A stretch of DNA of 64,000 nucleotides from Spirochaetae bacterium HGW-Spirochaetae-4 (lineage in GTDB: Bacteria > Spirochaetota > Spirochaetia > Sphaerochaetales > Sphaerochaetaceae), in contig PGXU01000005.1 of NCBI GenBank assembly GCA_002839335.1, positions 28,215 through 92,214 on the forward strand, written 5' to 3'. This document shows, one piece after another, positions 5,479-22,045 of the stretch. The notes under the pieces are model-generated. The model was not told where the DNA came from and made no database searches. It saw only the letters and a list, made by a program, of their open reading frames with translations. A program made the translations under genes and the position numbers. The stretch's first letter is position 1. Every line of letters starts with the position of its first letter.

Positions 5479-5507
5479 ACCATGTTCTCCTTTTAAGTTA
5501 TTCCTTG

Positions 5508-6246: not shown

Positions 6247-6321
6247 TTTTTATTGTAACATATATAACATTTTTCACATTTTTTGATAATTAACAAACAT
6301 TATCATGAAAAAAATATCATT

Positions 6322-7077
6322 CTAGTCCATATAGTATCCACCATTTATATTGACAACCTCTCCATTTATGAAGGAAGCATCATCCGAGGATAAGAACATC
6401 ATGAGATTGGACATGTCCTTCACAGTTCCAAGTCGCTTCACTGGAATCTTCTCTGCCATCGCATCTTTCTTCGCATCGTCCCAGTAGTACATCATCTTTG
6501 TCATGACTGCATGTGGTGCGATCGCGTTGCAGGTAATCCCGAACGGACCCAATTGCCGTGCAACCGATCTGGTTATGGTAATTACCGCTCCTTTCGAAGC
6601 GCCGTAAACGAACGTAGTCGAGTTATCCCCATTTTTTCCAGTGATCGAGGAAACATTTACAATACGTCCATATGATTGACGCTTCATGATTGGAGTTACT
6701 TCACGAATTGCGTATAGAATCCCCTTGATATTGATATCGATCGTCTTGTCGATCAAATCGTTGGTCGTTTCCTCTATTGTTGCATTCCGCAACAAGCCGG
6801 CATTGTTCACCAGGATATCCAATCGACCATACTTTCCAATGGTTTTTCCGATTGCATCGGCAACCTGGACATCGTCTGAAATGTCGCACTCGATAATCAA
6901 ATAATCGGAATTCTGCTCTTCCAGAAGAGTTCTCGTTTCCTCCAAACCTTGAACATCGATATCCACAACAACAACCCGAGCACCTTCCCTTGCCATATCG
7001 ACCGCCAGTTGCTGTCCCATTCCTTGCCCGCCGCCAGTAATAAAGGCAACCTTATCAACAAACCTATCAGGTCGCAT
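6322..7077 (-). CDS. Short-chain dehydrogenase/reductase (SDR, FabG-like)
   Basis: Contains TGGGQGMGQ (TGxxxGxG), NNAG and YGASKGA (YxxxK); 251 aa. Confidence 0.85.
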   Translation of the reverse strand: MRPDRFVDKVAFITGGGQGMGQQLAVDMAREGARVVVVDIDVQGLEETRTLLEEQNSDYLIIECDISDDVQVADAIGKTIGKYGRLDILVNNAGLLRNATIEETTNDLIDKTIDINIKGILYAIREVTPIMKRQSYGRIVNVSSITGKNGDNSTTFVYGASKGAVITITRSVARQLGPFGITCNAIAPHAVMTKMMYYWDDAKKDAMAEKIPVKRLGTVKDMSNLMMFLSSDDASFINGEVVNINGGYYMD

Positions 7078-7124: not shown

Positions 7125-7152
7125 ATTATAGTTAATTTTGTAACAATGTCAA
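7125..7152 (-). promoter_or_regulatory. Consensus sigma70 promoter upstream of the SDR gene
   Basis: The minus strand reads TTGACA-N16-TATAAT (both hexamers perfect), ~45 nt upstream of the ATG at 7077 (RBS aggagg). The spacer contains TGTTACAA, a deo-operator-like half-site. Confidence 0.7.
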
Positions 7153-7223
7153 TACCATTTTGTTAATTATATTTCATTTTAGCTAAACAGCAATAAAAAT
7201 TACCATTTTTTGTTAATATTTTG

Positions 7224-8741
7224 TCACTTTCTTTTCAATTTACTTCGATTATCCCACTGCAGGGATCTATTGACTGCTTCTCTCCACCCGTCGTACAGGC
7301 TTTCCCGTTGATCGACGCTTATCGTTGGCTCAAAAAGACGCTCGCGCTTCCAATGCCTACTCAATTCCTTCAGGTCACTCCAAAAGCCAATCCCCAGTCC
7401 TGCCAAGTATGCGGCTCCACGTGCAGCCATCTCCGAAACCACGGGACGTTCCACAGGGATACCTAGGATGTCAGACTGGAATTGCATCAGGAAGTCACTT
7501 TTCGAGGCACCGCCATCCACCCGTAAAGATTCGGGGGTGACTCGGGAGTCTTTCACCATCGCATCGACAACATCCCTCGTCTGATAGGCCATCGATTCCA
7601 AGGCTGCCCTGGCGATATGTTCCTGTGTAGTTCCGCGAGTTATGCCGATGAGGAGACCTCGCGCATACATATCCCAATACGGGGCACAAAGTCCCGTAAA
7701 TGCAGGAACCAGGTAAAGATCGCCGGTATCTGGAACTTTCTCGGCAAGCCGATCGCACATGGATGCGCTTTCAATTATTTTCAATCCGTCCCGCAACCAC
7801 TGCACAGCAGCACCACCAATAAAAATCACACCCTCGAATCCATACGAAGTCTTGCCATCGATATTCCAAAGCAAATCTGTGGTTAGCCCATGCTTGGAAG
7901 GAACAAAAGTCTCACCGATATTCATCATCAAGGCCAGAGCAGTACCATATGTATTCTTTGCCATTCCCTTTTCAAAACAGGTCTGCCCAAACGTAGCCGC
8001 ATGCTGGTCTCCAGCTGACCCGGAGATTGGAATTTCCTGTCCGAAAAAAACCTTGGCAGATGTTGTTGCCATATGCCCGCTATTCGGTTTCAATTCGGGG
8101 AGGATCGATGCGGGAATATCCAACATATCCAGCAACTCCTGGTCCCAAGCAAGATTGTGTACGTCAAGAAGCATTGTTCGCGAGGCATTGCTATAATCGG
8201 TTACATGGGAAGCCCCTCCACTCAGTTTCCAGATAAGATATGAATCTATTGTGCCCATGCACACACGATTCTCCCTGATTCGATCCATTATTCCGGGAAC
8301 ATTATCCAAAATCCATCGAATCTTTGTTCCAGAAAAATAGGCGTCCACCACGAGCCCGGTCTTCCTGCGGATCATTGGTTCATAACCCTTTTCTTTCAAG
8401 CTCTCGCAGATCTCCGCGCTCCTTCTACATTGCCAAACGATGGCGTTATAGTACGGTTCACCAGTAATCTTGTCCCATAATATTGTTGTTTCACGCTGGT
8501 TTGTTATTCCGATGCAGGCAATTTCCTCAATATTCGCTTTGCCTTCAGCCAAGATCTCACGGGTACAATCCAGTACTGTTTCCCAATACTCCACAGGATT
8601 GTGTTCAACCCAACCAGGATGAGGATATATCTGTTTTATTTCATGATAAGCTGTCGAATGGACTTGACCCTCATGATCGAACAAGATGACTCGGGTTCCT
8701 GTGGTTCCTTGATCGATCGCCATCACATATTTCTTTTCCAT
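7224..8741 (-). CDS. glpK: Glycerol kinase (FGGY family)
   Basis: The ATG at 8741 (RBS gggagg) gives MEKKYVMAIDQGTTGTRVILFD...IYPHPGWVEHNP...GITNQRETTILWDK.TGEPYYNAIVWQCRR.AEIC...YFSGTKIRWILDNV. This is near-collinear with E. coli GlpK as I recall it. Confidence 0.85.
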   Translation of the reverse strand: MEKKYVMAIDQGTTGTRVILFDHEGQVHSTAYHEIKQIYPHPGWVEHNPVEYWETVLDCTREILAEGKANIEEIACIGITNQRETTILWDKITGEPYYNAIVWQCRRSAEICESLKEKGYEPMIRRKTGLVVDAYFSGTKIRWILDNVPGIMDRIRENRVCMGTIDSYLIWKLSGGASHVTDYSNASRTMLLDVHNLAWDQELLDMLDIPASILPELKPNSGHMATTSAKVFFGQEIPISGSAGDQHAATFGQTCFEKGMAKNTYGTALALMMNIGETFVPSKHGLTTDLLWNIDGKTSYGFEGVIFIGGAAVQWLRDGLKIIESASMCDRLAEKVPDTGDLYLVPAFTGLCAPYWDMYARGLLIGITRGTTQEHIARAALESMAYQTRDVVDAMVKDSRVTPESLRVDGGASKSDFLMQFQSDILGIPVERPVVSEMAARGAAYLAGLGIGFWSDLKELSRHWKRERLFEPTISVDQRESLYDGWREAVNRSLQWDNRSKLKRK

Positions 8742-8868
8742 CAATTCCTCCCGAATACAATCCAAAAATTTCCATCCATAGCATGAACAGGGCTTATGCC
8801 TACTAGAAAAAACGCGGATGTCGGCTTCTTACCAGCCCAGACACCCACGTTATAAAACTCATTCCCGC

Positions 8869-10257
8869 TTAAACTTTCTCGTATGCGATTTTTAGCATGT
8901 CACACAACATTTCCCACCTTCTTCCATGAGTCCCCAAAGTAAGGGTCTGGTGGTGGGTTCCGCCGTATCGCATCCAATTATCCATTGCACTCCTGATACC
9001 AGTATCTGGCTTGAAATGGAAATATGTCATTGGAACATTCTTATACTCGGGTGTATCGAGAATAGATCCGTTGCAAATCACCAGACGGTAATCAACATCA
9101 TCGAGAGGAGCCAAAGAGACCAGAGTCCCAGGTCCCGGTTGGGCGCTGAAGACTACTGTCGGCGGATTATCCAATCCTCCAATCTCCAGTTCCCTGTCAA
9201 TCAATTTGATTGGACGATCTTTTCGGGCAATTTTCCAGTTTCCTTCTCCCATATGGCTCATCAATGCGGAATCCTTCTCATAATCGAGAGAATACATTTC
9301 AGTAAAATGGGCATCGCCGACAAGGGTGTGACCTGCGCCTACCAGGGCAGCAGTATGCACATCGCCTTCATTTGAATACGCATAGCCTTTGGCCATGAGA
9401 TTTGAAGCAGCCAACATGTTGATCTGTTTGAATCGTCCATCTTCAGCGAAAACGCCAAAATTTGCACTGAATCCGTTGAAGCGATTCTCAATCAGGAACC
9501 GCTCGAAAGCCAATTGCATTCTCGCCGCATATTGATGTCTTTCAAGGGTCAATTTTGGATCAACTTGGAAATTCCTCTTGTCTTCAGCAATGCTTTCCGC
9601 AATCTGTTTGTCGGTCACTTCAAGCATCAGTTTGTATATATCACCAATACCTTCAAAAAAGACCTCTGGCCCAATCATCCGATAGAATTTCTCATCATTC
9701 CCAACAATATCTCCCATCCCTTTCATTCTACCGAAAACAGCCAAACGCATTTTCTTAAGGGCGTTGTGGGTCTGGGCCGCTTTCGCCCAATCGGTGAAAA
9801 ATTCCTTGAATGCGTCGCTTTTCCAATCCTCAGTTATTATTGCTGGTTTGATTCCTGCATGTAACAACATATTTGCGGTGTCTTGTGCTCCGTGGATACC
9901 TTGGTTCGTGGTCAACCTACTCCAGTCCCAGTCGGTAGTCACCACTGGCAATGGTTGGACATTTGCGAGCATCACAGGAAGCCTGTTCTCCTTCAATGCT
10001 CCTATCAACGTAAAGCCTGGACTATATAGAAGCATAATAATCATGATGCCATCATATCCACCGTTATTATATTCCGCGACAGTCTCTTCAATCTGGGTTC
10101 TGGTTTTTGCTGCTTTCTTGAAAGTGATATCGGCTCTATCAGAAAGTTTCCCAATTACCTCTCTAGCAAATTTTTCCTGTTGAGCAGTAATTTCCGGTTG
10201 CTTTTCATCGTAAAGTCCATGCATGATTCCCAATAGTCCAATTTTTGGCTTTTTCAT
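8869..10257 (-). CDS. L-arabinose isomerase-family sugar isomerase (AraA-like; substrate unknown)
   Basis: A 462-aa protein with AraA-like layout: N-terminal IGLLG...LYDE, then NEGDVHTAAL, SHMGEGN and GGTHHQTLTLG, matching the EGDWKTAAL / SHMLE / GGAHHTV blocks of AraA. It is shorter than E. coli AraA. Confidence 0.7.
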   Translation of the reverse strand: MKKPKIGLLGIMHGLYDEKQPEITAQQEKFAREVIGKLSDRADITFKKAAKTRTQIEETVAEYNNGGYDGIMIIMLLYSPGFTLIGALKENRLPVMLANVQPLPVVTTDWDWSRLTTNQGIHGAQDTANMLLHAGIKPAIITEDWKSDAFKEFFTDWAKAAQTHNALKKMRLAVFGRMKGMGDIVGNDEKFYRMIGPEVFFEGIGDIYKLMLEVTDKQIAESIAEDKRNFQVDPKLTLERHQYAARMQLAFERFLIENRFNGFSANFGVFAEDGRFKQINMLAASNLMAKGYAYSNEGDVHTAALVGAGHTLVGDAHFTEMYSLDYEKDSALMSHMGEGNWKIARKDRPIKLIDRELEIGGLDNPPTVVFSAQPGPGTLVSLAPLDDVDYRLVICNGSILDTPEYKNVPMTYFHFKPDTGIRSAMDNWMRYGGTHHQTLTLGTHGRRWEMLCDMLKIAYEKV

Positions 10258-10270
10258 AATCCTCTCCTTA

Positions 10271-11488
10271 TTAAGATTTCTTTTGTTCCGGGTATTTTGG
10301 AATGAATGGAATGACCGAATTGTTTATATCCGGTCCAAAGAATTTTAGAATCACCAAGTCGGTATCGCCAGTATTTTCGTACAAGACTCCCTTGCGAGCT
10401 TTGTCGTCGACAACCAGCAACTCATCTTTCCCGAAATTCTGCCCTTCGACCAATAGATCATCAGCCTTACCGCGACCTTTCCAAACAAGAATATTATAGA
10501 CTCCCATATCTTTGCTTAACACCTTCTTATGGGGTTTGACTACCAATTTTTTTCCACTGAAGCGGGTGGTATTATAGTAAATCCAGTATTCCTGACTCTC
10601 CTCGGTCGCCGTCTCTTCAATCAAGATTGGGGGAGTATGACGATTTTCATAGAAATACGGATCCCCATTGATGTCCCAATTGAGCTGGTCCAAAACAGCC
10701 TTCTCCTGTTTTTCTTGCACAACTTTCTTTTCCACATCCTTGAACAGCAACTCTTTGGAAATTTGCTTCCCCTCAACATTGGATTGGAAAACCGACATGA
10801 CATCCGAAGGTTCCTGCAATTCAATCGTTAGGGCAGAACCCGGAGCATGCAATACACCAGCTGGTAGATGGAAACCCTCGCCAGGAACGTTCAAATATGC
10901 CCTCGAATGCTGGAGTATCAATTCGCTATCCCACTCCTTGAGACAAGGCAGCAATATCTCATATTGCTTGTTCTGCTCCACAATATATGGATGCACACCG
11001 AAGAATGTCTCTGGATGTGGTCCCAAATCAACGCCTTCCGGATAATAGTACGCTTCTTCCTTCGAGGTAGCTCCAACTTTTGACGCTTCCTCTTGTGTTT
11101 GATGAAAATGGTAAAATATCCTTCCCTTGTAGTCATAGATCTTGGCAAGCCTGAGGAGGTTCTTGTGGTTTTTTGCATATTCAGCTCCCAAGATCTCCGT
11201 CTTTGCAGCCTGAACCGCATCCCGAAGCAAAATATCATGACCGGGGATATCCAACAGCGACAACCCTTCGTTTTCGAATTTCACCTCGTTGTCAACTTCT
11301 GTCTCCGAGCCCAACCACCTTTCACATATGAAACCCCGTTTACCCACAGGGTATTCATGTTCCTTCAGCCCCAACCGCTTTCCCGGTTCGAGAAATGTCC
11401 TGGCTACCCAGCTTGGTCGCATCCGCAACAAACCATCGTGGGTCTTCACTGCTTCCTTTACTATGCGAAAAATCTCTGATTGTTCCAT
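10271..11488 (-). CDS. Uncharacterised 405-aa protein, possibly a cupin/PMI-like sugar isomerase
   Basis: A long ORF co-directional with and tightly spaced between the isomerase and DUF4432 genes. The only hints are weak and by eye (ERWLGSETEV, a HAPGSAL-type His segment), suggesting type I phosphomannose-isomerase-like cupins. Function unassigned. Confidence 0.6.
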   Translation of the reverse strand: MEQSEIFRIVKEAVKTHDGLLRMRPSWVARTFLEPGKRLGLKEHEYPVGKRGFICERWLGSETEVDNEVKFENEGLSLLDIPGHDILLRDAVQAAKTEILGAEYAKNHKNLLRLAKIYDYKGRIFYHFHQTQEEASKVGATSKEEAYYYPEGVDLGPHPETFFGVHPYIVEQNKQYEILLPCLKEWDSELILQHSRAYLNVPGEGFHLPAGVLHAPGSALTIELQEPSDVMSVFQSNVEGKQISKELLFKDVEKKVVQEKQEKAVLDQLNWDINGDPYFYENRHTPPILIEETATEESQEYWIYYNTTRFSGKKLVVKPHKKVLSKDMGVYNILVWKGRGKADDLLVEGQNFGKDELLVVDDKARKGVLYENTGDTDLVILKFFGPDINNSVIPFIPKYPEQKKS

Positions 11489-11510
11489 TACAAACCTCCG
11501 TATAAGGTAC

Positions 11511-12605
11511 TTACGAGTTCCTCAATGACTTGGCATACACATCCAGTCCCTTAATCTTGTCGATTGAATCCAAAACTTCGAATTCGATTGTTACATTGTA
11601 CACTTCTTGTGGATCCAGCATCGGTAGGAGTTTGTTTTCACGTGCTTTTGCCCTACCTATCGGGTTGACTGTACCAGGTTCCAGACCACAAACATAACAG
11701 CCTTTCCCGGGCATTTTCCATTCGGTCAATTGTGGCAATTCATTACGATTGTAACGCAACATGATTGCCAGGGGGTTACCCTGAATATCTGGATTGACCA
11801 ATGCCACAAAAGTCTTGCCGTCGGATTCAGCGCCAACGGAATGGAAAAACACTTTTTCCTTATATCCTTGGATCGGCTTGGGATATTCAAAACACTCGGA
11901 AACACCATTGTCCACTTCCGACTGCTTATCTCGAGGCGTCGTAGTCTTGCTTGGGATTACAATTCTTGATTTCTCCGAAAGCAACGGGAACCCAAAATTG
12001 AAATGATACAACATCATAAGCGGTTGTGGCTCAAAACCACGGTTCTCAATCGCATCCTCAATACGTATCGTACTGGACCCAAGTCTTGTCGATATCGTTC
12101 GGGTCAAAGTCAAGTTTTCACCCATCACAAAGGCTTCTCGCATTCTTCCTGAAATCGAGATACTGTATTCGTCCCCAATCCACTTTTGAGAAACTGAAAC
12201 ATCTTCTGCCCCGGCGTTTCCTATCCGCCCATGGAGACCAAATGCATTTCCATTGTCTATGGAGGGTGCTCCACTATTGGTGATACCACATGTGGAAAGT
12301 AGTCCCCCAAAGAACGTCCTCAACCAATTCAACCCCGGCTCTTCATAATAACCAGGGGAAGTCATACCAGTCGCAGAGGTGAATTGCAGGGGAATACCCT
12401 TAAAGCTGCATCCATAGATATCCAAGGCTCTTCCAGGAATCACTTGAAATGCTAGGCCGCTTCCCGTATACACATCAACACCTTGAACGCCTGCTGCTTT
12501 TCCATCATTGAATACAAAAGGACTGGCACCAGCTATAGCCGATTCATCCGAAATATAGGCTCTAAGACCTTCCCTGGTCCAAATTTTTCCCAAATAGTCT
12601 GCCAT
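11511..12605 (-). CDS. Aldose-1-epimerase-fold protein (DUF4432 family)
   Basis: GLNWLRTFFGGLLSTCGITNSG, FGLHGRIGNAGAEDV and MMLYHFNFGFPLL match my recollection of DUF4432 / galactose-mutarotase-like proteins. Confidence 0.7.
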   Translation of the reverse strand: MADYLGKIWTREGLRAYISDESAIAGASPFVFNDGKAAGVQGVDVYTGSGLAFQVIPGRALDIYGCSFKGIPLQFTSATGMTSPGYYEEPGLNWLRTFFGGLLSTCGITNSGAPSIDNGNAFGLHGRIGNAGAEDVSVSQKWIGDEYSISISGRMREAFVMGENLTLTRTISTRLGSSTIRIEDAIENRGFEPQPLMMLYHFNFGFPLLSEKSRIVIPSKTTTPRDKQSEVDNGVSECFEYPKPIQGYKEKVFFHSVGAESDGKTFVALVNPDIQGNPLAIMLRYNRNELPQLTEWKMPGKGCYVCGLEPGTVNPIGRAKARENKLLPMLDPQEVYNVTIEFEVLDSIDKIKGLDVYAKSLRNS

Positions 12606-12627
12606 TGTCTTCTCCTTTTTGCATTAT

Positions 12628-13716
12628 TCAAGTTTCTGCTTGTTTGGATTTTTCCAGTGCCTTTTGGGCAAGGATCATAGATTCACGCACTTTTCTTTGG
12701 GCAGCGATCATCCGTACGACTTCATCCGCGGCGACACCAATTAGAATGACAAGCCCTAGTACTACTTGTTCCAATTGGGTCGACACACCTGCTACATTGA
12801 TCGCGTTGTATAAGACACGAACAATTGCCGTTCCAAGAATCACGCCTAGGATAGAGCCGTCCCCACCTCTCAGACTCACACCTCCAACAACACAACCGGC
12901 AATGGCATACAACTCATACATGTTTCCCATTGAAGAAGGCTGAACGGTGTTCAAATCGAGGGAAAATAGCAATCCCCCAAGTCCTGCAAGTGTTGAACTG
13001 ATTACGTAGGCAATTATCAAAACATTATCAGTGTGGATTCCACTGAACCGGGAAGCACATTCATTTCTTCCTGTAGCTTTTAGATGTTGCCCATATATTG
13101 TTTTATTTAAAACAATAGCCATCAGCACGGCTATAGCCAACAACAATATGAACGGCATTGGAATCGACCAATTGAGGATAAACTTGGGAGCCTGCCCATC
13201 TGTCCAGAAAGCTGAGGGGAGACGTCCACTTGCAAGAAACCGTACACTCTGGAATCCAGTCCCATACCCCTGTGTCCGATCGTCCATTAGATAACGTGCC
13301 AGGCCACGATATACGAACAGACCGCAAAGTGTCACAACGAAGGCTTGCATGTGAATCTTGGTAATGAGCAACCCATGAATCAATCCTATGGTTGCAGACA
13401 ACACGATGATAAAAATCAACACAACCCAAACAGGCCATTGCGCATGAACCATCAGATAGGCGGCAATCGACCCGATAAGTCCTACAACAGAGCCAATGGA
13501 CAGGTCGATGCCTCCTGTGATAACAACAAAGGCCGCCCCAAGGCTCAACAATCCAAAAAGGCCTGTCCAACGAAGAATATTCCTTATATTATATGAACTT
13601 AAAAATTGTGGATTGATTATTGCGGTAACCAATATAATCAGGGATAGTAGAAAAGTTATCCCTCCTATCCGCTTCATACTGCGAATGTACTCAATCATTC
13701 TGTTGTTTTTATTCAT
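12628..13716 (-). CDS. Sugar ABC transporter permease (RbsC/AraH-like)
   Basis: A 362-aa polytopic hydrophobic protein with GGIDLSIGSV and VVGGVSLRGG motifs. Its start overlaps the ATPase stop by 4 nt. Confidence 0.85.
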   Translation of the reverse strand: MNKNNRMIEYIRSMKRIGGITFLLSLIILVTAIINPQFLSSYNIRNILRWTGLFGLLSLGAAFVVITGGIDLSIGSVVGLIGSIAAYLMVHAQWPVWVVLIFIIVLSATIGLIHGLLITKIHMQAFVVTLCGLFVYRGLARYLMDDRTQGYGTGFQSVRFLASGRLPSAFWTDGQAPKFILNWSIPMPFILLLAIAVLMAIVLNKTIYGQHLKATGRNECASRFSGIHTDNVLIIAYVISSTLAGLGGLLFSLDLNTVQPSSMGNMYELYAIAGCVVGGVSLRGGDGSILGVILGTAIVRVLYNAINVAGVSTQLEQVVLGLVILIGVAADEVVRMIAAQRKVRESMILAQKALEKSKQAET

Positions 13717-15272
13717 ACTAAACGCTCCGTTGCTAATTTCATGATATCTTCCTCGCTGCAGGACGCGGGATCCAACTCTCCTGTTATCCGTCCCTCACAC
13801 ATCACGACTATCCTATCGGCGATACCGAGTACTTCCTGCAATTCACTGGAAGCTACAAGAATCGCCACACCCAATTGAGCCAGGTCTTCAAGTAATTTAT
13901 ATATTTCAGCCTTTGCACCAACATCAATTCCACGAGTAGGTTCATCGAGTAATAATAACGTTGGATTCATAGCAAGCCATTTTGCCAAGACTACCTTCTG
14001 CTGATTTCCTCCTGAAAGGGATTCTGCGAATTGGGTTGTCTTAAATAGCCGAATATCAAGTTTTTGAACCATCCTTTCAGCCAATTCAGCTACTTTCCTC
14101 TTTTCGATAAATCCTTTCTTGGACAAATTGTCACATAATCCCGGAAGTGCAATATTGTTATCCACCTCCATATTTACAACAAGTCCATTCAATTTCCTGT
14201 CTTCTGGTACCAAAACCATACCCGCATGGATGGCATCCACAGGTTTTTTGATTGTCACCTCTTTTCCATCCAATAAAATCCGTCCACCCCAACTTTTATC
14301 TACTCCGAAAATTGTATGCAACAATTCAGATCGGCCTGCACCGATTAGCCCGGAGAGGACAACTATCTCACCCCCCCGTACGGACAGATTTACGGGAAAC
14401 CGGGCTTGCTTCGGAACAATCAAGTCCTCCAATTGCAGCCGCACCTTATCCGTCACCAGATGTCGTTTTTCATACATCTTCTCTATGTCACGACCAACCA
14501 TCAATCGTATCATCTTGTCACGATCAATCTCGTTTTTGTTGAGTGAACCGGATAGCTTCCCATCACGCAAGACGATTACCCTGTCGGCGACTTCCTTGAC
14601 TTCACCTAGCCGGTGGGAAATGTAAATGCAACTAATGCCATTTTGATTCAAATCTCTTATCACTTTAAACAATTGTTCCGTCTCATGTTCTGAAAGACTA
14701 CTGGTGGGTTCATCAAACATCACCACTTTCGCATTGATAGACAGTGCCTTGGAGATTTCAACCAATTGCTGAGAGCTAATTGGCAATTCCTTGAGAATTA
14801 TCGAAGGGTTCAAATGGAGACCAACCCTATTCAGCACCTCAGTGGCATCATTATTCATCTTATCAAAATCGATAACCTTCTTGAGATGTCGATACCTTGG
14901 TTCCCTTCCAAGAAAGACGTTCCCTGCAATGGACAAATTGTCACACAGGTTCAACTCCTGGTGGACCAACGCTACACCAAATTGGGTGGCTCTCTCCACC
15001 GATCCAATGGAAACAGCATTTCCCTCTATGATTATTTCTCCCGCATCAGGTACATATACCCCTGCAAGTATTTTCATCATAGTACTCTTGCCTGCTCCAT
15101 TCTCACCTACCAAAGCAAGTGTCTCTCCTACCTTGAGGTTGAAACTTACATCGTTTAGAGCTCGCACACCCGGAAACGATTTTGAAATATTCTTCACTTC
15201 AAGCACATATTCCTCTGGTAGATCGTGCCCTATCGACGATGGCTTTTCTTCGTTTTTCATAATTTTTTCCAT
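13713..15272 (-). CDS. Sugar ABC transporter ATP-binding protein with duplicated ATPase (RbsA/MglA-like)
   Basis: Has two Walker A motifs (GENGAGKST, GLIGAGRSE), two LSGG-type signatures (ISSQQ.., LSGGNQQK) and Walker B motifs (VMFDEPT, LLLDEPT). I prefer the ATG at 15272; the ORF-track TTG start at 15350 has no RBS. Confidence 0.85.
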   Translation of the reverse strand: MEKIMKNEEKPSSIGHDLPEEYVLEVKNISKSFPGVRALNDVSFNLKVGETLALVGENGAGKSTMMKILAGVYVPDAGEIIIEGNAVSIGSVERATQFGVALVHQELNLCDNLSIAGNVFLGREPRYRHLKKVIDFDKMNNDATEVLNRVGLHLNPSIILKELPISSQQLVEISKALSINAKVVMFDEPTSSLSEHETEQLFKVIRDLNQNGISCIYISHRLGEVKEVADRVIVLRDGKLSGSLNKNEIDRDKMIRLMVGRDIEKMYEKRHLVTDKVRLQLEDLIVPKQARFPVNLSVRGGEIVVLSGLIGAGRSELLHTIFGVDKSWGGRILLDGKEVTIKKPVDAIHAGMVLVPEDRKLNGLVVNMEVDNNIALPGLCDNLSKKGFIEKRKVAELAERMVQKLDIRLFKTTQFAESLSGGNQQKVVLAKWLAMNPTLLLLDEPTRGIDVGAKAEIYKLLEDLAQLGVAILVASSELQEVLGIADRIVVMCEGRITGELDPASCSEEDIMKLATERLV

Positions 15273-15443
15273 ATCAACCACAATCAGCCCACCCTTCTTT
15301 GAGTCCAACAAACAGTTGAATAATTCGATAGTATTCGTAGTCGGTACCAATGCATCCGGTCTTTTAAAAACCGGTCAGAGTGAGCCCCGACCGGTTTCTA
15401 TACATCGAATTACATTCCTTCGCTCACGATTTGGCCTATGAAA

Positions 15444-16505
15444 CTATTTGGTTGCTTCAAGATACTTGTTACCATCGGAAAGCTGGGCCTTGTATTTTCC
15501 CCAAACTTCATCAATGTTTTGTCCGGTGATCTTTAGTGCCGGGACATCGATCAACTTGTCGGCGGGGATGGAAACCGCTTCACCGCGTGCTTTCTTCGCC
15601 AATATTTCTATGGTTCTGACAGCATAGGTAAAGGGATCCTGGCCGAGAGCCGCATACGCGTTTCCGTCTTTAACTGCCTGCAACAACTCATTCTCCATGT
15701 CAAACCCGATTATCTTCATCTTTCCAAGAAGTCCAGCATCGGCAACGGCACTGATAATCGCTGGAGAACTATAACTCCACATGCCAACCATCAAATCCAT
15801 TTGCGGGAACTTCAAGATCGCATCTTCAGAGTTGGACTTGGCTTTGGACTGATCGCCACCATCTGTTCTCGTTTCAAGCAAGGTCCATTTTCCTCCACCC
15901 AATTTCAGGTTTGGAGTGTTGGGAGTCATTTTGCCGGGATATTGTGCAACGTACGGTTCGCCATTCAATTCATCGATCATTCCCTGACGTCGTTCGATTG
16001 CATTCTGTGCATCCAGGCGTCCAACAATAATCATGAACTCGCCACCATTCGGAAGCACTTCCGTAACAGCTTGTCCAGCCATTCTTCCTGCAGCATAGTT
16101 GCTCATACCGACGTATGCCAATCTATTGCTATTCGGTGCATCGCTGTCAAACATCACCATTGGTACAGTTTCCATAATCTCATTCAAAAATGGTGTTACA
16201 TTATCCGGATCGGTTACACTGATACCAATACCATCCACACCCCTGGTGACCAACGACTCGATGAATCGCTTTTGCTCTTCAGGAAGACCATTTGGAGGAA
16301 GCAAGAATTCAACATCGATATCCAGATCCTTCTTCAGAATCTCAACTGCCGCCGCAGAATATGTCCAAAATTCGTAGGGTCCATTGGTGATAAATCCAAT
16401 CAATGGCTTTTCAGCGACAGCCTCTTTCTGTGCCCCTGCAGAAACTGTAAAAACAGATACAACAAGAAGCAAAACCATGAAAACTACAAACAATCTTGAC
16501 TTCAT
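15444..16505 (-). CDS. Periplasmic sugar-binding protein (RbsB-type) of the ABC importer
   Basis: Has an N-terminal signal peptide (MKSRLFVVFMVLLLVVSVFTVSAGA) and a periplasmic-binding-protein type I pattern. It is the first gene of the transporter operon. Confidence 0.8.
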   Translation of the reverse strand: MKSRLFVVFMVLLLVVSVFTVSAGAQKEAVAEKPLIGFITNGPYEFWTYSAAAVEILKKDLDIDVEFLLPPNGLPEEQKRFIESLVTRGVDGIGISVTDPDNVTPFLNEIMETVPMVMFDSDAPNSNRLAYVGMSNYAAGRMAGQAVTEVLPNGGEFMIIVGRLDAQNAIERRQGMIDELNGEPYVAQYPGKMTPNTPNLKLGGGKWTLLETRTDGGDQSKAKSNSEDAILKFPQMDLMVGMWSYSSPAIISAVADAGLLGKMKIIGFDMENELLQAVKDGNAYAALGQDPFTYAVRTIEILAKKARGEAVSIPADKLIDVPALKITGQNIDEVWGKYKAQLSDGNKYLEATK

Positions 16506-16573
16506 ACGTACAACCTCCTTATCGGTTTACTCAGTCATGTTAGAAACCGTCACACGATCTGTGACATATGTTC

Positions 16574-16602
16574 ATTATCAATCAAGGAAATACCGTTGTC
16601 AA
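16574..16602 (-). promoter_or_regulatory. Sigma70-type promoter of the ABC transporter operon
   Basis: The minus strand reads TTGACA-N17-GATAAT, ~70 nt upstream of the ATG at 16505. Confidence 0.6.
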
Positions 16603-16902
16603 CATTTTTATGAGAATTTGACAACATTTTGCCAGCATCACCAATTTATGCCATTTTCCTATGAAAATACTTAATAAGTATATTTAATGTAAATATTTAT
16701 AATAATTTCTATTCATGAATATGTATTGATAAATTAATACTGTATGTTATTTTTCAAACATTTTGAATCATTCCCAAGCAGATTTTTTCATAATTTCCCA
16801 ATGATGTATGCCTCTTGGAGACTGTTCCGGCAACTCCTCTTTGTAATTAGGATTCCACGAACATCAATCAGTGTATCGGGGATTCACTTTGGTAGGCTCC
16901 GT

Positions 16903-17158: not shown

Positions 17159-18196
17159 CTAGGGTATCAAGACCGCTTTAACGATGAGTTCATTATTAAG
17201 CGCTTCGAATGCCTCCACTATTTGTGAAAGAGGGAACGTTTTTTCGATAAAGGGTTTCACATTCAGTTTCCCCCTCGCTATCAAATCCAGTACATATCTA
17301 TTCTGGGAAACAGTTGAAGCGTGGGCCCCAAATAGAGAGATTTCCTTATAATGAATTATATTGCTATCAAGAAATCCTTTTGATTCCTTGGGTAGCCCTC
17401 CGAACAAGCTGATCCTTCCTTGTTTGGCGATAATACCCAAAGCATCCGATTGGGCACTACCAACCGAACATGCAGTTATAGCGACATCCACCCCGAAATT
17501 ATCTGTATGCTGCATAATTGTAGGGAATAGGTCCTCTTTCATTGAGTTGATTCCATATAGCATCGGCAGCATTTCTTTTGCTTTGGCAATTCTTGCATCG
17601 TTCACATCGATCATGAACACTTTGCTTGCTCCTTGATGGTATGCAAGTTGTGCATGCATCGTACCGATAAAACCAGACCCAAAGATCGCTACAATATCTC
17701 CCTTTGAAATATTCAGATACTGTTGGGCATTCACTATACATGCGATCGGCTCGGTCAGAACAGCTTCCCGAGGGTCGAGTCCATCAGGAACCTTTGAAAC
17801 GTGATCCTGCATAAAGGCTTCAACCGGGATATGGACATACTCGGCGAACGTACCGTCAAATTCAAAGCCGATCGTTTTCAGGGAATCACAGAGATTGGTT
17901 TTTCCCTTTCTGCACGAAGGGCACACTCCACATCCAATTGCAGGCGCTACTTGTACACGATCACCGATCGAGAAGTTCTTGACATCCTTTCCGATTTCCA
18001 CGATGGTACCGACCATCTCATGACCTATAGTCCTTGGTGCCTTGATTTTAGAAGAACCAAATCGATAGGCCCTCAAATCTGTTCCACAAATCGAGGTCGC
18101 TTCAACCTTGACTACAGCGCTGGTATTACTTGAAGCCGGTCTTTCAATTTGCTTCAAACTCAACTTATTATCCGAATCATATATGAATGCAAGCAT
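17159..18196 (-). CDS. Zinc-dependent medium-chain alcohol/polyol dehydrogenase (sorbitol/threonine DH-like)
   Basis: Contains ICGTDL, GHEMVG, the structural-zinc motif CGVCPSCRKGKTNLC and GSGFIG (Rossmann fold). Confidence 0.85.
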   Translation of the reverse strand: MLAFIYDSDNKLSLKQIERPASSNTSAVVKVEATSICGTDLRAYRFGSSKIKAPRTIGHEMVGTIVEIGKDVKNFSIGDRVQVAPAIGCGVCPSCRKGKTNLCDSLKTIGFEFDGTFAEYVHIPVEAFMQDHVSKVPDGLDPREAVLTEPIACIVNAQQYLNISKGDIVAIFGSGFIGTMHAQLAYHQGASKVFMIDVNDARIAKAKEMLPMLYGINSMKEDLFPTIMQHTDNFGVDVAITACSVGSAQSDALGIIAKQGRISLFGGLPKESKGFLDSNIIHYKEISLFGAHASTVSQNRYVLDLIARGKLNVKPFIEKTFPLSQIVEAFEALNNELIVKAVLIP

Positions 18197-18229
18197 ATAC
18201 GCCTCACTTTATGTTATATTTTTAACATA

Positions 18230-18258
18230 AAGATACAGCTTCAATGAAACATTGTCAA
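18230..18258 (-). promoter_or_regulatory. Putative sigma70 promoter of the Zn-ADH gene
   Basis: The minus strand reads TTGACA-N17-TATCTT (perfect -35, 4/6 -10), ~35 nt upstream of the ATG at 18196. Confidence 0.45.
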
Positions 18259-18272: not shown

Positions 18273-18288
18273 TGTAAATCTCCTAACA
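18273..18288. promoter_or_regulatory. Degenerate deo-operator-like site
   Basis: TGTAAATCTCCTAACA matches TGTTAGAATTCTAACA at 11/16 positions; the right half TCCTAACA matches 7/8. It lies just upstream of the Zn-ADH promoter. Confidence 0.35.
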
Positions 18289-18322: not shown

Positions 18323-19129
18323 TTATACAAGTATCAAGCGGACTCCTCGTGAAATGATTTCCTTTTTCATCGACTCTTCAAGAGAATCGTTGGTAACAAT
18401 TATGTCGAAGTCTTCAATATTCGCAAAATGAGTCGGGCAGACCTTCCCGAATTTTGAGGCATCCACCAAAAGAATACTTGTTTTACTTGATTCAATGGCT
18501 TTTCTCTTTGTTTCCGATTCATAAGAGAGGGGGCAAGTTACTCCAAGTTGGGGGTGTATCCCACCTGCCGAGATAAAAACTTTCGAGGCTCGGGTATACT
18601 TCATAAAATCAGACGGATAAGGATTCTCAAACATTTTGGTTTGAGAATGGAAATAGCCACCATAGCTAATCAGTTTGCAATTTGGTTTTCTGCTTAGCTC
18701 AACCAGCACATTCAACGACCAACATACTGCGGTAAAAGAAAAAGTATTCTCAATTTCCCGACATAAATACGACATGGTCGTTCCAGAATCGATCATAACC
18801 GACTCATCTTGTTCCAAGAGGGTCGAAGCCTTCCTAGCGATTGCAATCTTATCTTCCCTGTTCTTTACAATCTGTTGATTGAACAAGTAATCCGAGTCGT
18901 TGAAATCTTTTACATCATCACTATTCGCCTGTTGGGTATCCGAGCCAGAATTATACAAAGCTCCACCGTGAAGATAACGAACTATCCCATTGGATTCCAA
19001 TATCGCCAAATCACGGCGAATGGTCATTTCCGAAACGTTGAATTTGGTAGACAACTCACTTATTGAACAAGCGTTATTCACTTTTATAAAATTTGTGAGT
19101 TCCTGTATTCGTTTTTCTCTCTTTATCAT
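18323..19129 (-). CDS. DeoR-family transcriptional regulator
   Basis: The ATG at 19129 (RBS gagg) gives MIKREKRIQELTNFIKVNNACSISELSTKFNVSEMTIRRDLAILESNGIVRYLHGGA..., an N-terminal DeoR HTH plus a C-terminal sugar-phosphate-binding (DeoRC) domain. The ORF-track TTG start at 19246 adds 39 implausible residues. Confidence 0.88.
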   Translation of the reverse strand: MIKREKRIQELTNFIKVNNACSISELSTKFNVSEMTIRRDLAILESNGIVRYLHGGALYNSGSDTQQANSDDVKDFNDSDYLFNQQIVKNREDKIAIARKASTLLEQDESVMIDSGTTMSYLCREIENTFSFTAVCWSLNVLVELSRKPNCKLISYGGYFHSQTKMFENPYPSDFMKYTRASKVFISAGGIHPQLGVTCPLSYESETKRKAIESSKTSILLVDASKFGKVCPTHFANIEDFDIIVTNDSLEESMKKEIISRGVRLILV

Positions 19130-19234: not shown

Positions 19235-19262
19235 TTGACAAGACAACTCAAGTTGTTACAAT
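19235..19262 (+). promoter_or_regulatory. Putative sigma70 promoter facing yigZ
   Basis: The plus strand reads TTGACA-N16-TACAAT. The -10 lies inside the operator-like palindrome at 19254..19269. The minus strand has TTTAAC-N17-TAGAAT facing the DeoR gene. Confidence 0.5.
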
Positions 19263-19269
19263 TCTAACA
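19254..19269. promoter_or_regulatory. DeoR-operator-like 16-bp palindrome
   Basis: TGTTACAATTCTAACA is 15/16 identical to the E. coli deoO palindrome TGTTAGAATTCTAACA (recalled from the literature). It lies 125 nt upstream of the DeoR-family gene and overlaps -10-like hexamers on both strands. Confidence 0.6.
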
Positions 19270-19369
19270 TATTGCATATTAAAGTTAAAGTGTATTTCTG
19301 CTGTTGCATGGCAGGCTTTGACTTCCTACCAATCTGTTGGTTTAGGAATATCCATGGTATCATCAAACC

Positions 19370-19969
19370 ATGAGAATTCCCCTATCCGAGAACCAAGTCG
19401 AGATTGAAGTCAAACGATCCCGATTCGTCGCCATCGCCGAACCACTCGACGGAATCGAGAACATCAAGGCAAGAATCGTTGCGACCCGCGCCTTGCATCC
19501 GCAGGCAAACCATGTAGTCCATGCAGCGGTGCTTGGTCCCGATGGTACCCAGTTCAGCCAAAGCGACGACCACGAACCGAAGAACACCGCAGGACGACCG
19601 GTACTGGAAGTGCTCAAGGGAAGCGGAGTCACAAACGTATTGGTAATGGTCGTCCGGTATTTTGGCGGAACGCTGTTGGGTACCGGAGGGCTGGTGAAAG
19701 CATATGGGGATGCAGCCAAAGCCGTGATTGATACCTTGAAAACCGAAGAACTCATTGAAAAATCCAATCTTACCATACAGATCGGCTATGAAATCTATGA
19801 GCAAGTCAGAAATCTGCTCGTGGAGAAGGACGGCCGGTCCACCGAAGATTTCGCAACCGGCATCACCATAGGGGCTACGGTTCCGACCATCCATGTCCAG
19901 GAAATCGTGGACAGGATCACCGATCTCAGTTCAGGTGGCGCTACGATTGAAGTACTTCACGAATGCTGA
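19370..19969 (+). CDS. yigZ: YigZ/IMPACT-family protein (UPF0029)
   Basis: EIEVKRSRFVAIAEP...HPQANHVVHAAVLG...DDHEPKNTAGRPVLEVL...VLVMVVRYFGGTLLGTGGLVKAY is the typical YigZ N-domain. Confidence 0.8.
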   Translation: MRIPLSENQVEIEVKRSRFVAIAEPLDGIENIKARIVATRALHPQANHVVHAAVLGPDGTQFSQSDDHEPKNTAGRPVLEVLKGSGVTNVLVMVVRYFGGTLLGTGGLVKAYGDAAKAVIDTLKTEELIEKSNLTIQIGYEIYEQVRNLLVEKDGRSTEDFATGITIGATVPTIHVQEIVDRITDLSSGGATIEVLHEC

Positions 19970-21273
19970 ACCGCAGCATCTGCCTGCTCGATGAATCTGA
20001 TCGCAATGGACAACGTCTCCTCGACCGCCTTGGGATCTATTGCTTCGGGAAGATCGTTCGGCGTGTGGTAGACACTCGACCGCTCCTTGTTGTCCCAGGG
20101 CATCGCCATGAGGGAAACAGCCTCGAATCCAGCTTTCGCGGCTTCGGCGGCATCGGTTCCCCCGGTCAGGAACGCAATCGGCTGGCTGAAGGCCTCATAC
20201 CCCATCGACTGTGCGATACCAACACATTTGGTCGCCATCTCCTGTGAAAGTTTGACACTGCCGTTGATATCGCTGGTCAGGAAGAACAGATCCTTCGCCT
20301 GATAGGGACAATCCACATTGAAGTTCCAGGTTTTCGCCGAAAGCACTTCCGGGTCATTGCGATGCCGTGCATAGAAGTCGCGTGCACCCCGCAAGCCGGC
20401 CTCCTCCCCATCGAAGCTGGCCAAGACGACCCGAGTATGGTGCAACGGATTTCCGTTCTCCGCATTGTGCTTGAAATACCGCGCCAACTGTACAGCCATA
20501 GCAGACGAAATCAGATTGTCACCGGCACCGGGTGTTCCCTCCTCCGAAGCGAAGAACCACAGTTTGATCACCCAGGGAAGCGCAACTGTCAACGGGATGG
20601 CCGCCATGATGAAAGCCCACGCGGGAACCCCAATGGCAAACACTCCTCCGGTGAATATCTCCACAATCGTCTGCACCAAGGAGACGACCGACAATACGAG
20701 GAACGCCCCAAGCCCCGTACCTATCCTAACCATGTAGAGGTGCGGTTTATGGGTGTAGAAATTGAACACGCGGGCACTGTCATGGTGTCCGCTGAACACG
20801 ACCGTCTGCCGTACATCCTGCTCCGGTTCCACAGTTCCGAATACATTCATACCGGTCACCTTCGGATACCATCGATCGATCACTTCCCTGTACAGGAAGA
20901 ATTCGTAGACCATGATCAGCAAACCAACGCCCATGAGGAGAAGGGAAAACAATGGCAACGACAGCCATATGCACAGCAATGCCACGGGATACAAAGTCAC
21001 CAGGATGCGTATCCATCCCAGGAAGGCCTTGGGATGCAGGGAGAATTCTTCCTTTTCGACACGATTGCAGTATGTCGACAGCTCGCTGGCCAACACTTCT
21101 GCCGTTTGGGTACACCCGGGAGTTCCCGTCAACCTGCTACCAAATCTCCCGATGAGGTCGGAAACCATTTCCAATGCATGGTTCCCCATACGTGCTGCCT
21201 GCAATTTTTCCATTCTTACTTTCGCCATGGGACACCTCGCTCCTATCATGGTCATACGTTCGAGTCCTGTCAA
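19957..21273 (-). CDS. M28-family metallopeptidase with an internal membrane segment
   Basis: Contains SGHHDS, ASFDGEEAGLRGARDF and a hydrophobic block of ~4 TM helices in the middle. The exact start is uncertain (several in-frame Met). Confidence 0.75.
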   Translation of the reverse strand: MTGLERMTMIGARCPMAKVRMEKLQAARMGNHALEMVSDLIGRFGSRLTGTPGCTQTAEVLASELSTYCNRVEKEEFSLHPKAFLGWIRILVTLYPVALLCIWLSLPLFSLLLMGVGLLIMVYEFFLYREVIDRWYPKVTGMNVFGTVEPEQDVRQTVVFSGHHDSARVFNFYTHKPHLYMVRIGTGLGAFLVLSVVSLVQTIVEIFTGGVFAIGVPAWAFIMAAIPLTVALPWVIKLWFFASEEGTPGAGDNLISSAMAVQLARYFKHNAENGNPLHHTRVVLASFDGEEAGLRGARDFYARHRNDPEVLSAKTWNFNVDCPYQAKDLFFLTSDINGSVKLSQEMATKCVGIAQSMGYEAFSQPIAFLTGGTDAAEAAKAGFEAVSLMAMPWDNKERSSVYHTPNDLPEAIDPKAVEETLSIAIRFIEQADAAVQHS

Positions 21274-21316
21274 GTTTTACGTGGTACCGGAGAGGGTTTT
21301 GCCTCCCCCGGTTTAC

Positions 21317-21345
21317 TTGACAAAGAATGGCCCCGTCAGTATAGT
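21317..21345 (+). promoter_or_regulatory. Strong sigma70 promoter of the tRNA/SRP-RNA cluster
   Basis: TTGACA-N17-TATAGT ends 14 nt before the first tRNA. Confidence 0.7.
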
Positions 21346-21358
21346 GGGAATCCTGATT

Positions 21359-21443
21359 GGAGAGATGTCCGAGCGGTCGAAGGAGGCGGTCTTGAAAACC
21401 GTTGAGGCGCGAGTCTCCGGGGGTTCGAATCCCTCTCTCTCCG
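21359..21443 (+). tRNA. tRNA-Ser (anticodon UGA)
   Basis: Manual cloverleaf: acceptor GGAGAGA/TCTCTCC, 3-bp D stem, anticodon stem GCGGT/ACCGT with loop CTTGAAA, long variable arm, T arm GGGGG-TTCGAAT-CCCTC. No encoded CCA. Confidence 0.9.
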
Positions 21444-21495
21444 CTAATTTCAATTTTCCGATCAGGTGTAGCGATCTACCTATCGGTAGTTCCCT

Positions 21496-21582
<87 letters not shown>

Positions 21583-21618
21583 TTTTTTTGGTTTTTTACA
21601 AGTTTAATGATATGTTGC

Positions 21619-21692
21619 GTAGCCATAGCTCAGCTGGATAGAGCATCAGATTGCGGATCTGGAGGTCGGAGGTTCGAATCCTCTTGGCTACA
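21619..21692 (+). tRNA. tRNA-Arg (anticodon GCG)
   Basis: Acceptor GTAGCCA/TGGCTAC, D arm GCTC-AGCTGGATA-GAGC (A20), anticodon stem TCAGA/TCTGG with loop TTGCGGA, 5-nt variable loop, T arm GGAGG-TTCGAAT-CCTCT. The D and T arms resemble E. coli tRNA-Arg(ACG). Confidence 0.85.
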
Positions 21693-21709
21693 TACGGCGA
21701 AGCCCGCCT

Positions 21710-21797
21710 GGAGAGATGTCCGAGTGGTCGAAGGAGACGGACTCGAAATCCGTTGTACCGTTTGACGGTACCGAGGGTTCGAATCCCTCTCTCTCCG
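21710..21797 (+). tRNA. tRNA-Ser (anticodon CGA)
   Basis: Acceptor GGAGAGA/TCTCTCC, anticodon stem ACGGA/TCCGT with loop CTCGAAA, long variable arm. Confidence 0.9.
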
Positions 21798-21828
21798 CTC
21801 TTTTTTTTCGTTTCTGTCATGTGAACTT

Positions 21829-21916
21829 GGAGAGATGTCCGAGTGGTCGAAGGTGCACCCTTGGAAGGGGTGTGAGCTCTAACCGGGCTCCGAGGGTTCG
21901 AATCCCTCTCTCTCCG
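21829..21916 (+). tRNA. tRNA-Ser (anticodon GGA)
   Basis: Acceptor GGAGAGA/TCTCTCC, anticodon stem CACCC/GGGTG with loop TTGGAAG, long variable arm. Confidence 0.9.
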
Positions 21917-21922
21917 TTTATT

Positions 21923-22045
21923 CCCCCTTGGTGTTGATGGTAGATTCTGTGCTATCGCTCTTCGCCCAACCCCGTCAGGACCGGAAGGTAGCAGCGGTAA
22001 GCGATTGAACGATGAGCCACAGGCGATGTATCGGAGCCAAGGGGG
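21923..22045 (+). ncRNA. ffs: Signal recognition particle RNA (small bacterial 4.5S type)
   Basis: Contains the conserved domain IV motif GTCAGGACCGGAAGGTAGCAGC (GGAA tetraloop; E. coli has GUCAGGUCCGGAAGGAAGCAGC). A 9-bp terminal helix pairs CCCCCTTGG (21923) with CCAAGGGGG (22037), followed by TTTTT. It sits immediately upstream of dnaX, as in the Bacillus scr-dnaX-ybaB-recR arrangement. Confidence 0.8.

Follow-up and report, generated by a model that had tools for sequence, protein, structure and literature searches.

What does a close copy of the Escherichia coli deo operator do in a spirochaete, and which molecule would the switch built around it sense? The question is raised by a 16-bp palindrome at positions 19254-19269 of a 64,000-nt stretch of Spirochaetae bacterium HGW-Spirochaetae-4 (contig PGXU01000005.1), which lies upstream of a gene for a DeoR-family regulator. 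The whole 64,000-nt stretch is referred to as the window, and all positions are counted on it. Sequence comparison makes it quite probable that this palindrome belongs to a set of six or more operators for the DeoR-family repressor encoded next to it (18323-19129). The features at the palindrome are as follows.

19254-19269, no strand assigned: candidate operator O_R, TGTTACAATTCTAACA, with perfect arms and one base off E. coli deoO1.
18323-19129, minus strand: DeoR-family regulator of 268 amino acids, with HTH_DeoR and DeoRC domains.
19235-19262, plus strand: promoter-like site facing yigZ (19370-19969), TTGACA-16-TG-TACAAT, 11/12 in the promoter scan.
19261-19288, minus strand: promoter-like site facing the regulator gene, TTAACT-16-TG-TAGAAT, 9/12 in the promoter scan.

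The initial annotation of this locus had placed TGTTACAATTCTAACA one base away from the E. coli operator. A literature search for the exact operator string returned no match, and the sequence was instead confirmed in the E. coli K-12 genome (NC_000913), where TGTTAGAATTCTAACA is deoO1 and TGTTAGAATACTAACA is deoO2; the two lie 599 bp apart, with deoO2 45 nt before the deoC ATG, and the same two palindromes are quoted as DeoR sites in PMC5326754. When the E. coli deo operator was written as a palindrome matching TGTTAGAA-TTCTAACA, positions 19254-19269 agreed with it at 15 of 16 bases. The palindrome itself is imperfect, with seven of its eight pairs matching and a C at both position 6 and position 11. 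The promoter scan also bore out the annotated overlap with -10-like hexamers on both strands, TACAAT toward yigZ and TAGAAT toward the regulator gene, with predicted transcription starts near 19269 and 19254, respectively.

We investigated whether related sites recur in the island, whose genes are all on the minus strand and whose transcription order starts with the DeoR-family regulator, followed by a Zn-dependent alcohol/polyol dehydrogenase (Zn-ADH). Recurrence had been claimed for the 8-mer half-site TTGTAACA, at 6253-6260, 6 nt upstream of the -35 of the bacterial microcompartment (BMC) promoter (TTGACT-18-TATAAT), and at 7138-7145, within the spacer of the 12/12 promoter (TTGACA-16-TATAAT) of a short-chain dehydrogenase/reductase (SDR) gene. 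Both positions were correct. The 8-mer by itself had three matches against 1.11 expected, a number reached in 10 of 100 shuffles, and was rejected as stand-alone evidence (p ~0.1). What stood was the recurrence of larger units, as the 8-mers turned out to be parts of full 16-bp TGTTA-N6-TAACA sites. Seven such sites with at most one arm mismatch were found in the window against 1.33 expected, and none of 100 shuffles reached seven. Six of the seven fall within the island's 2,023 bp of intergenic DNA (starting at 6254, 7130, 16745, 18212, 18273 and 19254), where 1000 dinucleotide shuffles of these regions gave a mean of 0.23 sites and a maximum of three. The five sites other than 19254-19269 match the deo operator in the 5-bp arms and an AT-rich centre only, not in GAATTC. 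An unbiased enumeration of every palindrome with 5-bp arms and a gap of 0-10 (11,264 patterns) ranked TGTTA-N6 at the top in the island intergenic DNA. A similar density in AT-rich DNA, whose occurrence genome-wide the initial annotation had named as one observation against its proposal, was not found within the window: where local GC is below 0.35, there are no sites in 720 positions outside the island, a small sample, versus six in 999 positions inside it. The 19 sites collected in this work give the consensus TGTTA-n-w-A-T-w-n-TAACA.

The placement of the sites relative to the predicted promoters was then compared.

18212-18227, no strand assigned: candidate operator with perfect arms, TGTTATATTTTTAACA (minus strand TGTTAAAAATATAACA).
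18273-18288, no strand assigned: second candidate Zn-ADH site, minus strand TGTTAGGAGATTTACA, one arm mismatch.
18230-18258, minus strand: Zn-ADH promoter-like site, TTGACA-17-TATCTT, 10/12.
7130-7145, no strand assigned: candidate SDR-promoter operator, minus strand TGTTACAAAATTAACT, one mismatch, filling the promoter spacer.
7161-7176 and 7211-7226: two weaker sites with two mismatches each, 31 and 81 bp upstream of the SDR spacer site.
7125-7152, minus strand: SDR promoter-like site, TTGACA-16-TATAAT, 12/12.
6254-6269, no strand assigned: candidate BMC-promoter site, minus strand TGTTATATATGTTACA, one mismatch, ending 7 nt upstream of the -35.
6217-6246, minus strand: BMC-operon promoter-like site, TTGACT-18-TG-TATAAT, 11/12.
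16745-16760, no strand assigned: distal site, TGTTATTTTTCAAACA, one mismatch, ~145 bp upstream of the -35 of the ABC-transporter operon (ABC operon).
16611-16626, no strand assigned: weak candidate site, minus strand TGTTGTCAAATTCTCA, three arm mismatches.
16574-16602, minus strand: ABC-operon (sugar-binding protein) promoter-like site, TTGACA-17-GATAAT, 11/12.

The six sites with at most one mismatch are spread over five promoter regions, and at three of these the -10, the spacer or the start is overlapped. The best second site, 18212-18227, was absent from the initial list; it begins 2 nt past the Zn-ADH -10 and so lies over the predicted start of transcription, near 18223. The degenerate site at 18273-18288, which had been listed beside the Zn-ADH promoter, was found as described: it shares 11 of its 16 bases with the 19254 site, ends 14 nt upstream of the Zn-ADH -35 and lies 61 bp centre-to-centre from 18212-18227. 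The function of 16745-16760 in the ABC-operon region is uncertain. The weak candidate at 16611-16626 lies 8 nt upstream of the ABC-operon -35 in a block that is conserved in position, and its counterpart in locus L008 is a one-mismatch site.

To follow the motif beyond this genome, loci were fetched around regulator relatives of 94, 76, 74, 73, 71, 64, 50, 49, 48, 44, 43, 42 and 41% identity; the ~29%-identical Megamonas DeoR-family genes (L005, L009-L027), which made up the bulk of the matches in the genome and metagenome scans, were not counted as orthologues. The independent lineages span regulator identities from 76% to 41%. Seven independent loci each carry at least one intergenic site with at most one mismatch, where shuffling gives an expectation of 0.06-0.21 per locus. 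Pooled, they hold 12 sites; 11 of these are intergenic, where ~0.85 would be expected. The enumeration of palindromes was repeated with the regulator-proximal intergenic DNA of seven lineages (4,617 bp), with the window and its 94% relative excluded, and TGTTA-N6 alone of the 11,264 patterns occurs in all seven.

Positions are also shared. An SDR gene is divergent from the regulator in L032 (48%), L033 (49%), L034 (44%) and L038 (42%), and in the first three of these loci the predicted SDR promoter has a site right after TTGACA that fills the spacer, as does 7130-7145 in the window. The regulator's own -10 is overlapped by a site in the window, L007, L034 and L037. In the Firmicutes locus L036, where the regulator is divergent from deoC and a pyrimidine nucleoside phosphorylase gene, two tandem sites (TGTTTGAATAGTAACA and TGTTAGAATTACAACA) stand directly upstream of deoC. 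Two spirochaete loci served as a negative control: L039 and L040 carry microcompartment cassettes of the same SPU type as the window, with BMC-T proteins 85% and 82% identical to that of the window, and encode SorC-type ("Sugar-bind") regulators but nothing of DeoR type. Neither locus has a site with at most one mismatch anywhere, nor one with at most two in intergenic DNA. Given this lack of sites at SorC-regulated SPU loci, the motif tracks the regulator, not the microcompartment. With this comparative evidence, the proposal that the palindrome serves the neighbouring DeoR-family regulator as an operator became stronger and is very probably right; the SDR, BMC, Zn-ADH and regulator/yigZ promoters all have sites of this type.

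Several observations weigh against the assignment of these sites as operators. Individual sites turn over between lineages: the Zn-ADH start-site operator 18212-18227 is conserved in L003 (94%) only and is gone in L007, L008 and L028. The conserved block of the ABC operon is represented in the window by a poor copy with three mismatches, and at the BMC and ABC-operon promoters the sites lie upstream of the -35, a position that is not obviously repressive. The L037 BMC promoter has no spacer site, L038 has no site with at most one mismatch, and the Planctomycetes locus L031 (50%) has none with at most two. Some pattern of the 11,264 reaches six matches in 59 of 1000 shuffles, giving a window-only family-wise p of ~0.06. 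Finally, the footprinting alignments of the 74-94% lineages are only partly informative. The palindrome 19254-19269 is identical in L003, and its left arm and part of its right arm are retained in L007, L008 and L028. The block kept upstream of the regulator in all five aligned lineages of this set, TATG(T/G)TA(G/A)(A/G)AT, aligns as an extended -10; with the right arm eroded in L008 and L028, what is conserved in those two may be no more than an extended -10. By comparison, the TTGACAA block at the Zn-ADH promoter is invariant in five lineages.

This last point raises the possibility that 19254-19269 is only the signature of a bidirectional promoter and no operator at all, with the back-to-back extended -10s TGTTACAAT on the plus strand and TGTTAGAAT on the minus strand sharing AATT and thereby yielding the deoO-like TGTTAnAATTnTAACA. 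The -35/-10-like elements are indeed correctly spaced on both strands, the block invariant in five lineages (TATGnTAnnAT) is an extended -10, and the right arm is degenerate in L008 and L028, where no yigZ lies opposite. Moreover, TAnAAT hexamers on opposite strands that share AATT force TGTTAnAATTnTAACA once the arms are given, leaving positions 6 and 11 alone free. The central AATT, which is the source of the 15/16 identity to deoO1, is thus imposed by the overlap of the operator with two opposed -10 hexamers, and for this reason the identity of the centre is not counted as extra evidence of orthology. However, the arms recur away from any -10, in the spacer at 7130-7145, over the start at 18212-18227 and upstream of the -35 at 6254-6269 and 18273-18288, and the motif is enriched, conserved in position in independent lineages and tracks the regulator gene. 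A promoter signature is also compatible with an operator: the DeoR half-site TGTTAGAAT has the form of an extended -10, and E. coli deoO1 and deoO2 likewise overlap -10 hexamers. We consider a bare bidirectional promoter improbable.

Alternatively, TGTTA-N6-TAACA might be the target of a different protein, for example a global catabolite regulator, or might reflect the composition of AT-rich promoters, its nearness to the regulator being incidental. The motif is AT-rich and lies in AT-rich intergenic DNA, the window by itself gives the borderline family-wise value stated above, and the AT-rich DNA available for comparison outside the island is small. Yet the pattern was fixed beforehand from E. 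coli deoO and beats dinucleotide shuffles of the intergenic DNA itself; it is the sole pattern common to all seven independent lineages, is absent from the SorC-regulated SPU loci and matches the operator of the nearest characterised homologue, whose recognition helix is identical. This explanation is regarded as very improbable, and the assignment to the adjacent DeoR-family repressor is retained.

We next examined the regulator protein. It has the DeoR family architecture (PF08220, HTH_DeoR, 2e-15; PF00455, DeoRC, 5e-41) and aligns with E. coli DeoR from end to end at 32% identity (E = 5e-43). The NCBIfam DeoR equivalog NF007961 is its best model with 163 bits, ahead of haloarchaeal GlpR (148) and AgaR (122), and its sole PDB match is the DeoR C-terminal domain 7L6L (1.3e-28). 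The recognition helix VSEMTIRRDL is identical in the regulator and E. coli DeoR, and VS-x-MTIRRDL holds in every orthologue examined, whereas GlpR has VSPQTIRRDL. The closest genomes were Sphaerochaeta-like Spirochaetota. The identity to E. coli DeoR is low and the score falls short of the equivalog cut-off of 244 bits; a designation of the regulator as DeoR proper was rejected on this cut-off.

E. coli GlpR, which senses glycerol-3-phosphate, has an operator of the same layout. Its glpD operator TGTTCGATAACGAACA (verified) is also a 16-bp palindrome with 5-bp arms starting with TGTT and a 6-bp spacer, GlpR belongs to the same protein family with a ...TIRRDL helix, and the island also encodes a GlpK-type kinase. 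However, GlpR sites have C/G at arm position 5, where the collected sites have A in 15 of 19 cases and never C, so that none shows the TGTTC/GAACA arms of a GlpR operator; the helix reads VSPQ- in GlpR and VSEM- here, and PRK10906 (DeoR/GlpR-type) scores 76 bits against 163 for DeoR.

The likeness to E. coli DeoR/deoO (deoCABD, nupG, tsx) lies in the 16-bp palindrome with TGTTA/TAACA arms and a central A-T, matching deoO1 at 15/16, in the overlap of operators with -10 hexamers, in the several separated operators per regulon and in the presence of DeoC among the downstream genes, as well as in the recognition helix, domain architecture, best NCBIfam model and only PDB match of the protein. The arrangement differs, however. 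The E. coli deoR gene is unlinked to deo, whereas the window regulator is encoded within its own regulon and is apparently autoregulated; and in place of deoA, deoB and deoD, the candidate targets are an ABC sugar importer, an isomerase, a kinase, dehydrogenases and a microcompartment.

E. coli DeoR binds its palindromes, loops separated operators and is released by 2-deoxyribose-5-phosphate (dRib-5-P; PMC5326754). We propose a switch in which the repressor, in the absence of inducer, would be bound to the island sites as an oligomer and would repress rather than activate. At the regulator/yigZ promoters the site overlaps both -10 hexamers, which would lead to autoregulation; at the Zn-ADH promoter one site sits on the predicted transcription start, with a second 61 bp upstream; and at the SDR promoter the site fills the -35/-10 spacer. 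RNA polymerase would be excluded directly at these promoters. The BMC and ABC-operon sites might instead act by cooperation or by looping with neighbouring operators, as in E. coli DeoR. A phosphorylated sugar from the pathway would bind the C-terminal DeoRC domain and free the repressor, and the release would turn on uptake, cytosolic conversion and an SPU microcompartment holding DeoC and an aldehyde dehydrogenase.

The genes that would be controlled in this way are the following.

17159-18196, minus strand: Zn-ADH, directly downstream of the regulator.
7224-16505, minus strand: putative uptake/catabolic operon, from ABC transporter to FGGY kinase.
6322-7077, minus strand: SDR gene.
1212-6164, minus strand: SPU-type microcompartment operon, typed against PMC11585597.

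Zn-ADH directly follows the regulator in the window, L003, L004/L007, L008 and L028. The 7224-16505 operon encodes, in order, a ribose-type ABC transporter (binding protein, ATPase, permease), DUF4432, a protein of 405 amino acids, an AraA-like isomerase and an FGGY kinase. The 1212-6164 operon encodes BMC-T (CsoS1D_N type), BMC-H, two BMC-P proteins, an acylating aldehyde dehydrogenase, two further BMC-P proteins, RpiB and DeoC. DeoC (DERA), encoded at the end of the operon that follows the 6217-6246 promoter, whose nearby site ends 7 nt before the -35, has an N-terminal extension of ~48 amino acids and scores 277 bits against the cut-off of 117 of the deoC equivalog TIGR00126. SPU loci are defined by DERA with shell proteins and aldehyde dehydrogenase, RpiB beside DERA and at least three BMC-P genes (PMC11585597); deoC, RpiB, Aldedh, four EutN_CcmL genes, BMC-H and a CsoS1D_N-type BMC-T were all found here, and the N-extended DERA, adjacent RpiB, acylating aldehyde dehydrogenase, BMC-P number, BMC-H and CsoS1D-like BMC-T are as in the SPU loci of Axen 2014 and of Dwyer, Sutter & Kerfeld 2024. 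The microcompartment was thus not "otherwise uncharacterised", as the initial annotation had it: it is an SPU-type metabolosome, for which deoxyribose-5-phosphate is already a published predicted substrate (PMC4207490, PMC11585597). SPU metabolosomes are among the most widespread types and are largely uncharacterised in vivo (PMC11585597). The SPU literature describes no DeoR-type regulator or operator for these loci, only a GntR/UTRA regulator at one SPU6 locus.

Which molecule would free the repressor? The initial annotation had reasoned from the operator, next to a BMC-encapsulated DeoC, to a dRib-5-P-responsive regulon. The step from the same operator to the same inducer proved invalid, because the effector is read by the C-terminal domain and not by the DNA-binding helix, and because GlpR shares the operator layout and senses another molecule. 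Gene context, a separate line of evidence, does favour a dRib-5-P-like inducer: DeoC, whose substrate dRib-5-P is the likeliest inducer, is the commonest and most constant partner of the regulator, and 7 of 10 lineages have it in the DNA fetched around the regulator gene. In L032 and L037 the regulator gene stands divergent to an SPU BMC operon, and in L038 its neighbours are deoC, a nucleoside hydrolase gene, a Bmp-type ABC transporter and a gene of the Metalloenzyme family, taken here to be deoB. Given the operator assignment, we put the chance that dRib-5-P is the inducer at roughly even.

Only slightly behind stands the alternative that the operators are real and the inducer is another phosphorylated intermediate of the island pathway, for example what the FGGY kinase makes, or the phosphate of a ketose or polyol. 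The island would then be a regulon for a sugar or polyol in which DeoC is no more than the last step. Members of the DeoR family respond to a range of sugar phosphates, and the regulator scores below the DeoR equivalog threshold. The ABC importer, AraA-like isomerase, GlpK-equivalog kinase, SDR and Zn-ADH would be needless for a nucleoside or deoxyribose route, and the importer, isomerase, kinase and dehydrogenase genes of the island form no known route to dRib-5-P. No DeoC was found in the fetched DNA of the 64-71%-identical relatives L029 and L030; L029 has class II aldolase, FGGY kinase, RpiB-like, GFO/IDH and Zn-ADH genes, a transketolase gene adjoins the regulator in L030, and in L031 the regulator is paired with an FGGY kinase and a class II aldolase. 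Speaking for dRib-5-P, however, are the frequency of DeoC as partner in the subfamily, the purely nucleoside-catabolic contexts of L036 (deoC-pdp) and L038, and the fact that E. coli DeoR is both the closest characterised and the closest solved relative.

The kinase and its neighbour bear observations of their own. The FGGY kinase (7224-8765, minus strand) clears the NCBIfam glycerol-kinase (GlpK) equivalog cut-off with 683 versus 590 bits, a score that is unexpected for a pathway supposedly ending in deoxyribose-5-phosphate; more distant loci have another, longer FGGY kinase alongside genes for 2-hydroxyacid dehydrogenase and AP_endonuc_2. Pfam and NCBIfam give no match for the protein of 405 amino acids (10271-11488, minus strand), whose gene lies between those for DUF4432 and the AraA-like isomerase. 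It is found at the same position and 76-97% identical in L003, L007 and L008, and L028 has there a gene of 412 amino acids without a Pfam match.

We conclude that the locus very probably holds a real but conventional genetic switch: a repressor/operator system of DeoR type, in this case from Spirochaetota, that is coupled to sugar uptake and to an SPU microcompartment. Its surprise for a specialist is low and its value is practical. The motif and the repressor offer a way to find the inducer and the regulon of the SPU organelle, genome scans with them could delimit the regulon and hence the uptake and conversion genes that feed the compartment, and the repressor/operator pair could be used for switching on SPU compartments in heterologous hosts. 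The DNA specificity of DeoR appears conserved far beyond the enterobacteria, which aids regulon annotation in Spirochaetota and Clostridia.

A bolder and rather doubtful reading is that VS-x-MTIRRDL/TGTTA-N6-TAACA is an ancient deo code spanning Proteobacteria, Firmicutes and Spirochaetota (~32-41% identity) that in spirochaetes was re-wired from nucleoside catabolism to SPU and an imported-sugar pathway. If true, it would imply an undescribed route from an imported sugar or polyol to the DERA substrate inside the compartment, running via the AraA-like isomerase, the GlpK-type kinase, DUF4432, the protein of 405 amino acids, SDR and Zn-ADH. The swap of DeoR and SorC regulators on near-identical SPU cassettes would then represent convergent sensing of the same molecule, an idea that rests on DeoR and SorC being the two families in which a deo repressor that senses dRib-5-P is known. 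Bacillus subtilis DeoR, of the SorC family, is described in PMC11229326 as a deo repressor with dRib-5-P as its effector. It has the same physiological role in the deo system as E. coli DeoR, belongs to an unrelated protein family with a different operator type, and is not present in the window. SorC-type "Sugar-bind" regulators adjoin the near-identical SPU cassettes in L039 and L040, whereas the window cassette is wired to a DeoR-type operator set. The cassettes of these two loci (L039 17165-17235 and L040 8914-9921) are joined to different sugar-pathway genes. The SPU cassette appears to be modular, with regulators exchanged between loci.

The surroundings of the island were also inspected. 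GC content climbs from ~0.43 to 0.54 just past the palindrome (window 19400-22000), and five tRNA genes (four Ser, one Arg) are clustered at 21359-21917. In L007, L008 and L028 (73-76%), the ABC operon, rather than yigZ, is divergent from the regulator, which indicates that the island has been rearranged. It may also be an acquired island.

Further sequence elements were noted near the promoters. The predicted yigZ leader contains a terminator-like hairpin of eight pairs (19297-19315, plus strand), ~30 nt beyond the plus-strand start that the promoter overlapping the operator would give. In the leader of the ABC-operon binding-protein gene, just past the predicted -10, an inverted repeat GTCACA-N5-TGTGAC at 16549-16565 is kept in five aligned lineages and could be a leader hairpin or a site for a second regulator; an invariant GTTGTCAACA block spans the ABC-operon -35 in the aligned lineages.

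Two other palindromic pairs were found. In L034, TGGTA-N6-TACCA sites at 2897-2912 and 2992-3007 (TGTTAAAGTTTTACCA and TGGTAAAGTATTACCA) lie between ABC binding-protein and SIS-domain genes, near a second DeoR-family regulator (4162-4929), which may be a paralogue with shifted arm specificity. In the window, the 18-bp perfect palindrome TTGTTTCACGTGAAACAA occurs in two identical copies (43612-43629 and 43668-43685), 56 bp apart, between the open reading frames 42517-43314 and 43736-46225, both on the minus strand, and looks like a paired operator for a different regulator.

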